A DNA stretch of 63,772 nt, counting the filler, from Stramenopiles sp. TOSAG23-2 (Eukaryota), in assembly GCA_900128395.1 (NCBI GenBank). It is 54 parts of 54 records of this genome, joined end to end, with 100 filler letters (N's around TTAATTAATTAA, not from the genome) between each part and the next. Parts side by side here need not be neighbours in the genome. Positions count along the whole stretch, not along the records: positions 42,661 to 43,740 come from LT653790.1; 53 more parts are not named here. One strand, 5' to 3'. A program made the position numbers and the translations under genes. The notes below the pieces were generated by a model. That model saw nothing but the letters and a program-made list of their open reading frames with translations. It searched no databases and was not told where the DNA came from. Of this stretch, positions 41,480 through 46,099 are shown piece by piece. Every line of letters begins with the position of its first letter. Position 1 is the first letter of the stretch.

Positions 41480-42560
41480 ATCCGTTGCATTTTTCGGAGA
41501 ATTGTTTGGGGATGTTTTTTGCTCCCAGGCTGACTTTACTTGCAGCAAATTTTCTCGTGTCTGTTTACGGCGTTTTTTTCGGCTTGATTCGCTTTCATCA
41601 AAACCTAACATAAATCCACGTTGATTTAAACGTCGCTGGGCGCGCCGCTTGCGTTGTCTGATTTGATTTGCTTTGAACCAATTATTTAATGCAACTAATG
41701 TCCATACACAACCACTTAAAAATATACAAATCAATGGTAGTGACAATACAGTCGCTTGATGAAGGAAAAATGTTGATGTTTTAATTGTATCCGGCCCACG
41801 CCTTTCAAGACTGCAAGAAGGATTGAAAACATATTCCCCAGCAGATCCTATGGCATTTAAAAATCTAAAATAATTACTCATTGAATCTGGCCATTTCAAT
41901 GGAAATCCAGTTGCTAAACTTATTAATTGCAAATGATTGATGACAATTTTTTTCAATGATTGTGCATAATGATGATGCGAATGATTCAAATCTTCCTCAT
42001 TTTGTTTTAAAGCTGTTCTTAAAAATCCAGCAACGATAAATACAATAAATAGAAAGGCAAAGCCGACNNNNNNNNNNNNNNNNNNNNNNNNNNNNNNNNN
42101 NNNNNNNNNNNNNNNNNNNNNNNNNNNNNNNNNNNNNNNNNNNNNNNNCGACGACAATGGTATTTAACCATTCTGGAGGACATGCGACACATTCGCCAAC
42201 GCCAGCTTCCCAATATCCTGGGCGACAAGCACGGCAAAGTCTACATGTCTTGTGCAAAGACGTATCATTCGACGTTTTGTCCCCACAATTGGTTTCAAAA
42301 CCCAACTCGTAATTGCAAATTTCTGGACCATCTAATAATGCCATGTCCTTACCATCCTCATCAAAGTATTTACCACGCAACAGATTATTTGTACCACCTA
42401 AACATGCTTTTGGATTAATGCATGGCCAAAATATTTCTTTCGTCCCACGTTTGTCTATTTCATCTAATCGATAATACCCAAACTTTGCCCGAACATCCTT
42501 CCAAAGGCTTTCACCGGTACAATCAGCCCCTCGCGGACAGTCACGACATTCCCAATTTGT
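41480..42560 (-). CDS. Large Cys-rich ectodomain + multi-TM protist membrane protein (partial, N gap)
   Basis: CRDCPRGADC, WPCINPKACLGG, LCRACRPGY..CVACP, then KIVINHLQLISLATGFPLKWP. Confidence 0.7.
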
Positions 42561-42662
42561 NNNNNNNNNNNNNNNNNNNNNNNNNNNNNNNNNNNNNNNN
42601 NNNNTTAATTAATTAANNNNNNNNNNNNNNNNNNNNNNNNNNNNNNNNNNNNNNNNNNNNAA

Positions 42663-43127
42663 TATGAATACAGAGATACAATACATAAGTCAGGTAAAAC
42701 CATAGGATTTATAGCCCAAGAAGTTCGTGAAATTATACCAAACGCAGTAATGTTAGAAAAACGATTTACTCCAAATGAAATGCGACATTTCGTAAATCTT
42801 GAATGGAATGAAGTAAAAGACAGTAGTGATAATACACATTATACATTACACACGGATTTACAAGATGTTAGTGGAGTTAAATATTTATTTTATGTTAGTA
42901 ATGAAACAGATGGTATTGGAGAAGAAGCGGAATATGTGGTAGGAAATAGTGATAATACCTTTACATTTCAAGAAAAATACAGCAATATATTCTGTTATGG
43001 AAAAGAAGTAAATGATTTTCACCAATTAGATAAAAGTAAATTATTTGCTTTAAATTTTTCAGCAACACAAGAACTAATACGAAAAGTAGAACAGTTAGAA
43101 CAAGAAATACAACTGTTAAAAAAATAA
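42663..43127 (+). CDS. Virion fibre C-terminus with a peptidase S74 intramolecular chaperone domain
   Basis: YEYRD..IGFIAQEVREIIPNAV..IFCYGKEVNDFHQLDKSKLFALNFSATQELIRKVEQLEQEI (terminal coiled coil). Confidence 0.85.
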   Translation, partial: YEYRDTIHKSGKTIGFIAQEVREIIPNAVMLEKRFTPNEMRHFVNLEWNEVKDSSDNTHYTLHTDLQDVSGVKYLFYVSNETDGIGEEAEYVVGNSDNTFTFQEKYSNIFCYGKEVNDFHQLDKSKLFALNFSATQELIRKVEQLEQEIQLLKK

Positions 43128-43149
43128 AATAATCTTTAGCAAGTATATA

Positions 43150-43329
43150 ATGCCTCATAAAAGAAAACCCGGACGCCCTCGAAAAACACGAAGAAGAAAA
43201 AAACAACGCGGTGGTGCTATTTTTGGTGCTGCTGCGTCTCTTTTGGCACCAGTGGCAATTGAAGTTATTGGAAAATCAATTGCAACTAAAAGACCTGTTA
43301 TTAAAGTGTTAGCCGATAAATTTAAATAA
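43150..43329 (+). CDS. 59-aa basic core-like protein (AT-hook, QRGG, hydrophobic helix); not in the ORF track
   Basis: MPHKRKPGRPRKTRRRKKQRGGAIFGAAASLLAPVAIEVIGKSIATKRPVIKVLADKFK*. Confidence 0.75.
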   Translation: MPHKRKPGRPRKTRRRKKQRGGAIFGAAASLLAPVAIEVIGKSIATKRPVIKVLADKFK

Positions 43330-43359
43330 ATATTAATAAATAATTGTTAATATTTATTT
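43324..43359. terminator. AT-rich hairpin between convergent ORFs
   Basis: AAATAAATATTAATAA-ATAA-TTGTTAATATTTATTT: 16-bp stem with 1 mismatch and a 4-nt loop. Confidence 0.6.
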
Positions 43360-43368
43360 GATTTCTTT

Positions 43369-43740
43369 TTAAATTGTTTTTAATGTATTAGTTTTTGTAT
43401 TAAGTACCCATTTTGGTCGTATAATTTCTTCTACTGGTTTTGGCATTGATTTACCATCTTCTTCATAATCACTTAAATCTATCCAATATCTAGGTTTTAA
43501 TATTGGATAATAACCAATTACTACTCCTTTCATATCATACCTTACAATACCAGGTATTTGGTTATAGAATTGTGGATAGGCTCTATTCCATAAGATAACT
43601 TCTTTAGTTATTTCTCTTTCAATGCTTCCAGTGTCAAATAACTGAAAACACATTACTTTTGCTACATATATAGCTGCATCTTTTATTTCTTCTTTATCAT
43701 CAAAGCCGTGTTTATGAACTCCAGTTTCACTATTATTACA
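43369..43740 (-). CDS. Hypothetical viral protein (5'-partial)
   Basis: 123 sense codons open to the contig edge; the stop lies next to the hairpin. Confidence 0.6.
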   Translation of the reverse strand, partial: CNNSETGVHKHGFDDKEEIKDAAIYVAKVMCFQLFDTGSIEREITKEVILWNRAYPQFYNQIPGIVRYDMKGVVIGYYPILKPRYWIDLSDYEEDGKSMPKPVEEIIRPKWVLNTKTNTLKTI

Positions 43741-43841
43741 NNNNNNNNNNNNNNNNNNNNNNNNNNNNNNNNNNNNNNNNNNNNTTAATTAATTAANNNN
43801 NNNNNNNNNNNNNNNNNNNNNNNNNNNNNNNNNNNNNNNNT

Positions 43842-44920
43842 ATGGAATTGAAAGAATATTATACGCAAACTATCTATTTGTTTACGCATGATAAATATGG
43901 TAATCCACAGTTACATTCAAATGATGATATCGAAGTTGTAGTGGAGGAATCGTGTCCATATCGTTTAAGAAGTATTATCCGTGGTGAAGATGTTGATAAT
44001 GAAAAAGATAAGTTTAAAATTACCAGAGAAGATCGATACTTTGCGGAAAATGTTAAAAAGAATAGTAATAAAAATGTTTACAAATGCGAATTTGTCTTGA
44101 AAGATGATTTCGAACATAGATTAGTTGCAAAAGGATTTGCTGCGCTTGTAGAGTCAGATGAAACGATCGAATGCATTGTGCGTATCAAATGTAACGGAGA
44201 TAGTTTGCCACAATCGCCATTTATTTTAAAAACAAATTTAGATGGATCGAATCAAGAGAAACAAGTGGTTACCTTACATCATGATATTGATGAAACGATG
44301 ACATTTAAAGACACTTATGGCAGTAAATCACCACGAGAATTTCAACGCATTATGCAAGAAAGAAATGACAAGGAAAAAGCCAGTAGACGACTGATTTATA
44401 ATAAAAATAAACATCATCATCGACGACAAATTGCAAATGATATGTCTTACAATACAAGTGAAGAGGAAGAAGAAGAATATGATGAATATGAAGAGGAACA
44501 GGATGATAGAAATGGGAAAAAGCGTGATAATGAAAACGGCGGGGCACTTTATGGGGATAACACTCCTAACATTGTGAATAATAATGATGATAACAACAAG
44601 ACAAAACCAGTATTGGTTACAAAAAACATGATGTTAAATTATAGTCCTGTAAAAACGCCTATGATGAATAATACCAGTAGTGGTAAGAATGATTTAAAGA
44701 AATTTATACCATCACGTACTGAAGATTACATAGCAAATGTACGAAATGAAACTATTTATCCATCATTGGCTGAATATATTCGTGGTGAAATTTATGAGCA
44801 TTTAAAGAAATCTCCATTTTCATCATTAAAAGTGATGCAACCAGATATTAGAGCACCAATGGCTGCTCCAGCAATGAAAGTACTGGAACGATATGTATAT
44901 GGGCTGTGGATGGTATTTAT
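43842..44920 (+). CDS. Protein with a filamin-type Ig repeat (partial)
   Basis: IYLFTHDKYGN..DIEVVV...VRIKCNGDSLPQSPFIL; open across the contig. Confidence 0.6.
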
Positions 44921-45020
44921 NNNNNNNNNNNNNNNNNNNNNNNNNNNNNNNNNNNNNNNNNNNNTTAATTAATTAANNNNNNNNNNNNNNNNNNNNNNNN
45001 NNNNNNNNNNNNNNNNNNNN

Positions 45021-46099
45021 TTGACGACGACGTACATCAAGTGCATCACCATCGGCACCAAGAAGATGAACGCCATGTAATGCATCGAGCACCTGGAATA
45101 CATCGCCTCGATTACGTTCCAATACGTCTCGAATTTATTCTCAAACCACAATTCTCTCACTGCTGGTGCCGAGAATTGAAATAAAAACGCGTAGGATATG
45201 GACATGATCGAGTAGAACAATGAATACTTGAAGCTCGAATACCTCGAAATGTTATACTTGCCGATGATCAACGGCATGAACGCAATTGCCCCAAACTGTA
45301 TCTTCGTGAACTCGTGCGAGATAGGTCCGTACACTCCCGCTAAAAACAACGTCACTTGTGGATGTCTCAAAAAAGTCTTAATCATTTGCCTCCAAAAGTA
45401 CAATTTTTCCTCGTATTTTCTATCGTACTCGAACGTGCCTCTCGCGCCGATTTGTTTCCTCACGCCTAAACTCAAAAACGCCGCATCGATTGCCAACTGT
45501 AACGGTACAAATCTCGTCAAAACGTTCTTCACGTACACCGAATACACATCTGGCGTTAAAATCCTATTTTCGTTCGGGACAATCTCCTGTATCCCAGTGA
45601 TGGTAATTTTCGTTTCCAACATCAAAATGCACGCGAAGTAAATCGCGTACTGTTTCAACCTCGGATCCAGCCTGAAATGCCCGAAATGAGGGTGGCTAAA
45701 AGCATCTTTCTGTTCGAAGTGTTGTTTTCGTTGTTCGTGTTCTCGATTCAACGCCGTCTTCTTATTCGTCGTCCTCTCGGTATACGAAGACCGATGAAAC
45801 CCCACGATTTCCTTCTTCTCTTTCGTGGTTTCAAACCACCTCCTACGAATGATCTCTCTCAATTCGACCGCGTGATCTACCACAACCGAGAAGGATTTTT
45901 GGTTCTCCAGATTTAACTGAACGTCTTCGTATCGCACCATCGTCTCTCCGCCCTGTTGATGCAACCGTTTCAATTCTCCTGTCGTTTTCTCTCGTCGCCG
46001 GTGGTCTCCCTCCCGCGCAACATCATCAAAACGTTTCGCAGACCAATAATGTCGTCGTTGTTGACGGTGCTGGACGATACCGTCCTCCTCCTCCTCCTC
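45021..46099 (-). CDS. Membrane protein fragment on a higher-GC, CpG-rich contig, probably from another organism
   Basis: Open across the contig; frequent CG-containing codons and GAG/GAC repeats, unlike the other contigs. Confidence 0.6.

Follow-up and report, generated by a model that had tools for sequence, protein, structure and literature searches.

The 59-aa reading frame at positions 43150-43329 of the window (the whole 63,772-nt stretch analysed here, from the assembly GCA_900128395.1 of Stramenopiles sp. TOSAG23-2) is a genuine, previously unannotated gene that is conserved and under purifying selection. A preliminary description had presented it as a small gene of viral type, which its relatives, the selection acting on it and its start and stop signals bear out. 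We tentatively regard its product, with a little less than even confidence, as a late, particle-associated protein, in which a basic arm would hold DNA and a hydrophobic module would lie in a membrane or under the capsid. Gene callers systematically overlook small virion proteins, and there is next to no knowledge of how AT-rich genomes are packed and anchored in marine giant viruses and their satellites; the family described here, with its putative DNA-binding arm of 22 residues, its hydrophobic module of 37 residues and its clean transcription signals, is a compact and testable candidate.

Identification and conservation of the gene

The reading frame on the plus strand translates without a stop into exactly the 59-aa protein described previously and contains no masked bases. 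The spacer of 22 bp given in that description was reproduced, since the TAA of the upstream ORF occupies 43125-43127, and the KPGRPRK core (residues 6-12), the Arg/Lys tract, the GG dipeptide (residues 21-22) and the hydrophobic stretch were each found in the translation. By itself, the size of the ORF is unremarkable in DNA of 29% GC, as the region of 38-48 kb in the window holds 78 ORFs of at least 30 aa; it is placed beyond chance by its conservation across relatives. A word-indexed search returned 14 relatives of 57-63 aa with 68-98% identity; their sources are metagenomes, a marine GOS scaffold among them. An exhaustive phmmer search over 1.84 billion representatives returned five clusters, with matches of 42-78 aa and no relative longer than 78 aa. 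A first metagenome scan with the small-gene family gave nothing; a second scan gave three further DNA copies on metagenome contigs, referred to here as L004, L005 and L006. Altogether the family comprises about 20 distinct relatives of 54-65 aa, every one of them from marine metagenomes.

All six pairs among the four DNA copies have dN/dS values of 0.05-0.27 (calculated for the last 33 codons, with synonymous sites near saturation). Three substitutions within the ORF are listed for the assembled contigs (at 43221, 43284 and 43287; 11 further differences stand outside this list), and all three fall at third codon positions. The sole internal indel among the differences listed is one of 15 nt that keeps the frame, and indels of 1 and 2 nt occur in the spacer.

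Searches for relatives elsewhere were negative. The 59-aa protein has no match in PHROGs or Pfam. Homologues in tailed phages or in cells had been named beforehand as the finding that would speak against a viral gene of this type; we found no family match among phage records (50,697 at E up to 1) and no true match among 185,579 prokaryote species, each represented by one genome, where the two raw hits proved to be out-of-frame motif matches in high-GC genes. Four candidates were rejected in the course of these searches: the presumed relatives L002, L003 and L007 have a short motif in common with the family and nothing more, and are spurious, and the presumed fusion P0162 (450 aa, placed in the 54-56 aa cluster of P0019) resembles, by eye, a CobB/CbiA-type enzyme and is evidently an artefact of clustering.

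A viral-type island in protist DNA

Judging from its coding content, the window is protist nuclear DNA and not a viral contig: its standard-code ORFs contain IFT43, importin-type Arm repeats, SMC hinge, Polo box, cathepsin, ribosomal L11-family and cyclophilin domains, among others. The ciliate code (TAA/TAG read as Gln) was considered and dropped, as it opens all frames in AT-rich DNA and is uninformative, and the Pfam matches come from standard-code ORFs. A tRNA search of the window found none. One ORF of 334 aa (44969-45973, minus strand) stands out by its GC3 of 0.63, against 0.13-0.35 elsewhere, in a region (44-46 kb) with a local GC content of 0.37; it has no Pfam match.

Positions 42661-43740 of the window correspond to LT653790.1 and have masked stretches at both ends. 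The window includes 4,821 N in total, mostly as pairs of 44 N that recur every ~1.18 kb, with two longer runs at 750-825 and 42068-42148. These masks are artificial and not biological, because the 12-base linker between the N pairs gives stops whichever of the six frames is read; the masks interrupt many ORFs and conceal both junctions of the island. The island itself is of viral type and about 1.1-1.3 kb long, and it extends at most over ~42561-43840, since the fibre fragment and the convergent ORF both open into masks, leaving the 59-aa gene as its one complete gene (Table 1). Within the window GC3 is lowest in the three island ORFs, at 0.13-0.15; ORFs with host-type domains have 0.17-0.35.

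Table 1. Features of the island and of the small gene (positions in the window).
Feature	Position	Strand	Evidence or remark
Masked stretch, 44 N + 12-base all-frame stop linker + 44 N	42561..42660	.	Hides left junction with host Cys-rich gene (minus strand)
Fibre gene 3' fragment: C-terminal Peptidase_S74 intramolecular-chaperone region and terminal coiled coil, 5' part missing	42661..43127	+	Open frame, Pfam, PHROG
TATATAATG, promoter- or initiator-like motif directly at the start codon	43144..43152	+	4/4 loci; TATATA peak in giant-virus loci
59-aa gene, stop codon included	43150..43329	+	Translation, relatives, dN/dS
Residues 1-22, basic arm with no secondary structure predicted	43150..43215	+	Net charge +12; KPGRPRK at 43165-43185; ends in GG
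Residues 23-59, conserved 37-aa part	43216..43326	+	Hydrophobic helix 23-46, break K47-R48-P49, short helix 50-58
A/U hairpin from the stop codon on, between the convergent genes	43322..43361	.	-13 kcal/mol, z -4.67
Convergent gene, C-terminal 123 aa, open up to the right-hand mask	43369..43740	-	GC3 0.13; no Pfam or PHROG match
Masked stretch	43741..43840	.	Hides right junction with next host-type ORF (43842-44972)

The neighbour upstream of the small gene, previously called a fibre gene, is indeed an S74 fibre, but merely a C-terminal fragment of one. Its 154 aa, whose frame runs in from the mask at 42661 without a stop, match Pfam Peptidase_S74 (E 6e-5, profile positions 28-57 of 58) and the C-termini of tail fibres in PHROG (E 1.6e-5). 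It belongs with the S74 fibres of giant viruses and Polinton-like viruses (PLVs), as does the fibre ORF of L006, to which it is 56% identical. The terminal chaperone region alone is kept here, because the frame is open from the mask edge, the S74 match begins only at profile position 28, and a Cys-rich host-type ORF on the opposite strand reaches that same mask (42561-42660). For the convergent ORF, an assignment as a Rep_1-type protein was rejected, as the atlas recognition score is low (1731) and the matches are not credible. A segment of 37 nt within this ORF (43596-43632) has a depth of 56.4 in public run X3 and 18.1 in run X6 (marine DNA), with the same loose ends on both sides, and is a short conserved segment common to another abundant sequence.

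Genomic contexts of the relatives

The DNA similarity among the four copies is limited to a segment from ~20 nt before the ATG to ~25 nt past the stop. The gene order of the window is repeated in L006, which contains an S74 fibre C-terminus (Pfam E 1.1e-13), a spacer of 19 nt, a 65-aa family member and a convergent WD40 ORF. In L004 the small gene is preceded by an ORF of 217 aa, which has no match in Pfam or PHROG and a single fragmentary relative. The atlas clusters nearest to this ORF (0.97, 183/256 features) are viral, their few labelled members being mostly from Preplasmiviricota, and lower-ranked clusters carry Phage_integrase; together with inspection of the sequence, this offers a lead, and only a lead, towards a recombinase-like protein. 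L005 (positions 1-1015) comprises a 5'-truncated FabD-like gene, ~60 nt of a fibre 3' end, the small gene and a complete gene for a cytochrome c with a signal peptide. Its FabD-like and cytochrome c flanks look bacterial and the contig has low coverage; it is possibly a chimeric assembly, or else an odd insertion. Linked genes for an adenain/Ulp1-like protease or for capsid proteins, which the preliminary description had proposed to look for, are absent from the island in the window and from L004-L006, as are packaging genes and penton, hexon or adenain neighbours, all these contigs being short.

Start and stop signals

The motif TATATAATG is invariant at the start of the gene in all four small-gene loci, and the sequence farther upstream differs. 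For the S74 fibre family, from which a broader set of loci was drawn, 8,000 candidates were scored; 2,412 of them are relatives at E up to 1e-5, and the contigs that carry them reach 484 kb. Among 42 IMG/VR loci with related fibres (L008-L049), 20 are named "GVMAG", which denotes giant-virus MAGs, and others lie on contigs of up to 212 kb. TATATA is the most enriched 6-mer (8.3-fold) in the 30 nt before the ORF starts of these 42 loci, and its peak is confined to the last 20 nt before the ATG, with 44 + 52 occurrences against 0-9 in every other 10-nt bin. The control words AATAAT, TTTTTT, AAAAAA and TTAATT have no peak, and the AT content rises only from 0.71 to 0.79. TATATA is found 0-13 nt before the ATG at 53 of the 265 ORFs in these loci, and at most 20 nt from the start in 9 of the 16 fibre genes whose start lies inside the locus (Fisher p 0.001). 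In the host window the motif occurs at 0/51 ORFs of at least 100 aa and at 2/83 ORFs of at least 70 aa. Some genes in the giant-virus loci begin with AAAGTATATAATG, which is near the CAAGTATATAATG of the window, and the early motif of mimivirus, AAAATTGA, was encountered in only 1 of 277 upstream 30-mers from the 42 fibre loci.

From its position and its enrichment at fibre genes, we infer that TATATA may act as a late promoter in these uncultured marine giant viruses; a TATATA motif has been described as the ASFV-like late promoter motif of Nucleocytoviricota (PMC11788076, in the text available). Sharply placed and seen in 42 uncultured giant-virus loci, it also offers a practical way to separate genes under viral control from those of the host in protist assemblies. 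At the other end of the gene, a hairpin overlaps the stop codon in all four loci, with stems that differ from one locus to another (z -4.67, -1.22, -1.78 and -3.85, two of them individually significant). Transcripts of Mimiviridae terminate at hairpin-forming palindromes (PMC4402537), and PgVV-type PLVs, as far as the available text of bioRxiv 10.1101/2022.07.28.501842 describes them, have their genes transcribed one at a time and rely on their giant virus for this. With its start motif and its stop hairpin the small gene is thus equipped for transcription of the giant-virus type, and both signals match the marine giant-virus loci, not the host. They fit a gene of a giant virus or of a satellite that borrows giant-virus machinery. 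The S74 fibre partner and the start and stop signals point to giant viruses or their satellites, and not to Polinton-like viruses in particular.

Architecture of the protein family

The layout of a basic arm, a Gly hinge and a hydrophobic helix, proposed for the window copy, is common to the whole family. In the 10 full-length lineages the N-terminal arm varies between 19 and 29 aa and carries a net charge of +10 to +16, while the part after the hinge is constant at 36-37 aa. The invariant residues of the latter are A29, S30, P34, I40, I44, K47, P49 and V53; its best 19-residue Kyte-Doolittle mean is 1.5-2.2 and its hydrophobic moment is low. An AF2 model calculated from a 17-sequence alignment predicts coil for residues 1-22, a helix for 23-46, a break at K47-P49 and a second helix for 50-58, with a moderate mean pLDDT of 68.6 that reaches 76-83 in the C-terminal part. 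The hydrophobic helix includes a conserved Pro and an acidic residue.

Of the three elements whose conservation was to be checked, the hinge and the helix are present throughout the family and the GRP core is missing from some members. An AT-hook core is found in the window copy (KPGRPRK) and GRP in 17 of the 22 members (14 of 19, plus L004-L006), doubled in P0016 and L005, but it is lost in P0008, P0014, P0017, P0018 and P0019, which suggests that it is basic charge in general that is conserved, and not the hook. The Pfam AT_hook model is matched by one of 10 members, weakly (E 0.51). Where the arm meets the helix, every member has a hinge of the form G-G-[A/G] or G-[S/R/K]-G, with Q, K or R at P4. 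The covariation between GG-A and GX-G that is visible in alignment A2 disappears in alignment A5, in which the hinge is ungapped, and the resemblance of the hinge to two types of adenain sites depends on the alignment used.

Comparison with adenovirus pX and other systems

The pX-like architecture attributed to the protein holds for its general plan, namely a basic arm followed by a hydrophobic tail of ~37 aa, but neither for a profile match nor for the cleavage site. In an hmmscan of 10 members against all Pfam-A models at E up to 10, four unrelated weak families were returned and no pX model (Adeno_PX). Compared with the adenain consensus, (M/I/L)-X-G-G|X or (M/I/L)-X-G-X|G, P4 at the hinge is never M, I or L. 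The family is therefore pX- or "Macc"-like by layout only.

Macc is a polyphyletic class defined by architecture, with adenovirus proteins VI and X as its canonical members and a small virion-core protein with a holin-like hydrophobic domain as its characteristic form (PMC11071296, in the text available). The small family, known here from sequence alone, shares the hydrophobic domain and the architecture. A further comparison is offered by the adomavirus virion core protein LO6, which by HHpred matches the 37-aa hydrophobic segment of pX and, in virions, is apparently cleaved by adenain, at motifs given as (MIL)XGXG or L(LR)GG (bioRxiv 10.1101/341131, in the text available). Adenovirus X, Macc proteins and LO6 resemble the small family in combining an Arg/Lys-rich DNA-binding stretch, a hinge of Gly-Gly type and a hydrophobic segment of ~37 aa, the best conserved part. 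Unlike pX, which has two cleavage sites, the small family has one hinge; GRP AT-hook cores take the place of Arg/His runs, and the carrier of the gene appears to be of giant-virus type instead of an adenovirus or a Polinton.

Two other systems share single features with the family. ASFV pEP84R is a small single-pass membrane protein of an NCLDV that links the inner membrane to the core; it resides in the inner envelope, guides core assembly and is needed for DNA packaging (PMC9910796, in the text available). No homology to it is claimed, and it binds the polyprotein pp220, not DNA, a basic AT-hook arm being undescribed in the available part of that paper, but it gives an example of core organisation by a small protein of the inner envelope that is not a pX. 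Late genes of ASFV, like the small gene, have a start motif of TATATA type. With HMGA-type AT-hooks the family shares a G-R-P core flanked by Lys/Arg (17/22 members), which would suit an AT-rich genome; HMGA proteins lack a hydrophobic helix, whereas the arm of the small family is attached to one. A full-text search, covering main texts, found no paper that combines "polinton-like" and "AT-hook".

Proposed role and alternative readings

We infer late timing, location in the virion, DNA binding and membrane anchoring for the small protein. Its carrier would be an uncultured marine giant virus (Nucleocytoviricota, mimivirus-like) or a small satellite using such machinery, and the window copy would lie within a short virus-derived patch inside protist DNA. 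The gene may form a transcription unit of its own, with a TATATA-type, probably late, promoter at the ATG and a hairpin at its end. The flexible and very basic arm, in which one or two GRP AT-hook cores are usual, would attach to the AT-rich DNA of the virus, and the hydrophobic helix-break-helix of 37 residues would be seated within the inner particle membrane or beneath the capsid. Acting together, the arm and the helix module might tether or condense the genome within the virion, a role already suggested for the "membrane-active capsid core" class, of which adenovirus protein X is an example; a cut at the Gly hinge would not be needed for this. Weighing against this reading are the absence of family members from IMG/VR and from the surroundings of the giant-virus fibre genes, the lack of linked capsid, packaging or protease genes in the four contexts, the bacterial-looking flanks of L005, the Pro and the acidic residue inside the hydrophobic helix, and the moderate confidence of the AF2 model.

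A true analogue of pX or pre-Mu, in which a viral clan-CE cysteine protease cuts the Gly hinge at maturation and frees an AT-hook DNA-condensing peptide from a hydrophobic tail of 36-37 aa, is unlikely in our estimate, and we consider pX-style cleavage of the hinge as such possible to the same small degree. Such an analogue would account for the position of the hinge, which in all members lies precisely at the border of the arm and the helix (residue 23 being the first of the helix in the AF2 model), and for a post-hinge part of fixed length behind a variable arm, and it has a parallel in LO6, whose pX-like part is likewise a 37-aa hydrophobic segment and which is apparently cleaved in virions (bioRxiv 10.1101/341131). 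It is countered by the failure of the Pfam pX model to match any of 10 members at E up to 10, by a PDB profile search without any adenovirus chain, by Q, K or R at P4 instead of M, I or L, by the disappearance of the GG-A versus GX-G alternation once the hinge is aligned without a gap (A5), and by the lack of a linked protease gene in all four contexts (on short contigs); moreover, the word "protease" does not occur in the available text of the paper on PgVV-type PLVs, and a Gly hinge ahead of a helix is common without any cleavage. Still less probable, in our view, is a non-structural small membrane protein, either a viroporin- or holin-like pore or a protein tail-anchored in host ER or nuclear membranes, with the basic N-terminus as a topology signal or a signal of nuclear-localisation type. 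In tailed phages, lysis genes often lie near fibre genes, and the small gene follows a fibre gene; the protein moreover has one membrane-competent helix, 24 residues long, whose hydrophobic moment is low and which has basic residues on either side, and some Macc classes are described as holin-like (PMC11071296, in the text available). An arm of +10 to +16 with GRP in 17/22 members, however, far exceeds what topology requires, the small gene and the fibre genes have a promoter type in common, and PHROGs and Pfam contain no match to the protein. A chance ORF or a piece of a cellular gene, e.g. a relative of ribosomal protein eS7, is effectively refuted: residues 105-161 of eS7 are the sole PDB match of the family profile, but at a non-significant E of 0.14, and the low dN/dS values given above, a frame start and stop kept in ~20 distinct sequences and the exhaustive search, with its matches of 42-78 aa and none longer, all speak against it. 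The resemblance to eS7, obtained with profile A2 and consisting of a basic stretch followed by ...VEIVGK...K..KVL, was rejected as chance.

As regards the window copy, there is a substantial possibility, which we hold to be slightly below our confidence in the particle-associated role, that the island is not part of the protist chromosome but an amplification or assembly join, or else a dead fragment of an old insertion without a role for the host. Both outer genes of the island are incomplete and both junctions lie inside masked stretches; in run X2 a 696-base contig of depth 5.6 represents the identical piece and ends at 43724, with the S74 part under diverged high-depth copies, and L005 presents a comparable short island among unrelated genes on a low-coverage contig. 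On the other hand, an insert with host genes on both sides would require two chimeric joins, and the small gene, its start motif and its hairpin are all intact in the window copy.

Should the protein indeed occur in particles, and above all if its hinge is cut, it would link core biology of the adenovirus type with giant-virus biology. The most far-reaching version of this, which we consider a long shot, is that adenovirus-style core maturation operates outside the adenovirus/Polinton lineage: a giant virus or its satellite would produce a mini-precursor with one hinge, and a clan-CE protease, cutting at Q-x-G-G|A (or G-x|G), would free an AT-hook peptide from a membrane-active tail of 37 residues. 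In that case the layout of pX/Mu would be an old answer, shared among viruses with double jelly-roll capsids, to the packing of AT-rich genomes, and the gene would be a promoter/ORF/hairpin cassette moving between viral genomes and into host DNA.

Occurrence in public sequence data

Sequence words sampled from the island were found in 20 public runs from eight studies, marine or seawater wherever labelled, six of the runs being RNA libraries. Contigs from four runs were aligned to the N-free island only, and gaps of coverage in X3 and X6 are no sign of absence. Near-identical pieces cover all 30 bins of the island in the RNA run X1; such contigs attest presence in RNA libraries, and transcription of the gene, its timing and its level are not proven thereby. 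The contigs diverge from the window at 43093, 43118, 43127 and 43151, and the small gene thus has other upstream partners in other variants. In X2 the S74 part (42661-43092) is multi-copy, with several diverged contigs at depths of 150-980, and the piece with the small gene covers 43029-43724. The exact 59-aa protein is encoded on 15 short ENA contigs, and P0142, a near-identical member that differs from P0001 by R48K only, on a contig of 26.6 kb.

No family member was detected among 2.9 million IMG/VR contigs with profiles A1 and A5, and searches of IMG/VR with each island neighbour singly returned either nothing or a coiled-coil match of only 18 residues (L001). The small-family HMM likewise found no member within 4 kb of the fibre in the 42 IMG/VR fibre loci, and because of this absence from IMG/VR and from the fibre loci no complete viral genome with the small gene is known. 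Other short ORFs follow the fibre gene in some of these loci: a conserved ORF of 162-168 aa beginning with MAFTRFNYD or MSFTRFNYD (L012, L013, L027, L031, L034 and L039), a Gln-rich ORF of 82-92 aa (L009, L014, L016 and L043) and a His-rich ORF of 43-64 aa beginning with MPRYAHH or MPRFAHQ (L030, L033 and L035).
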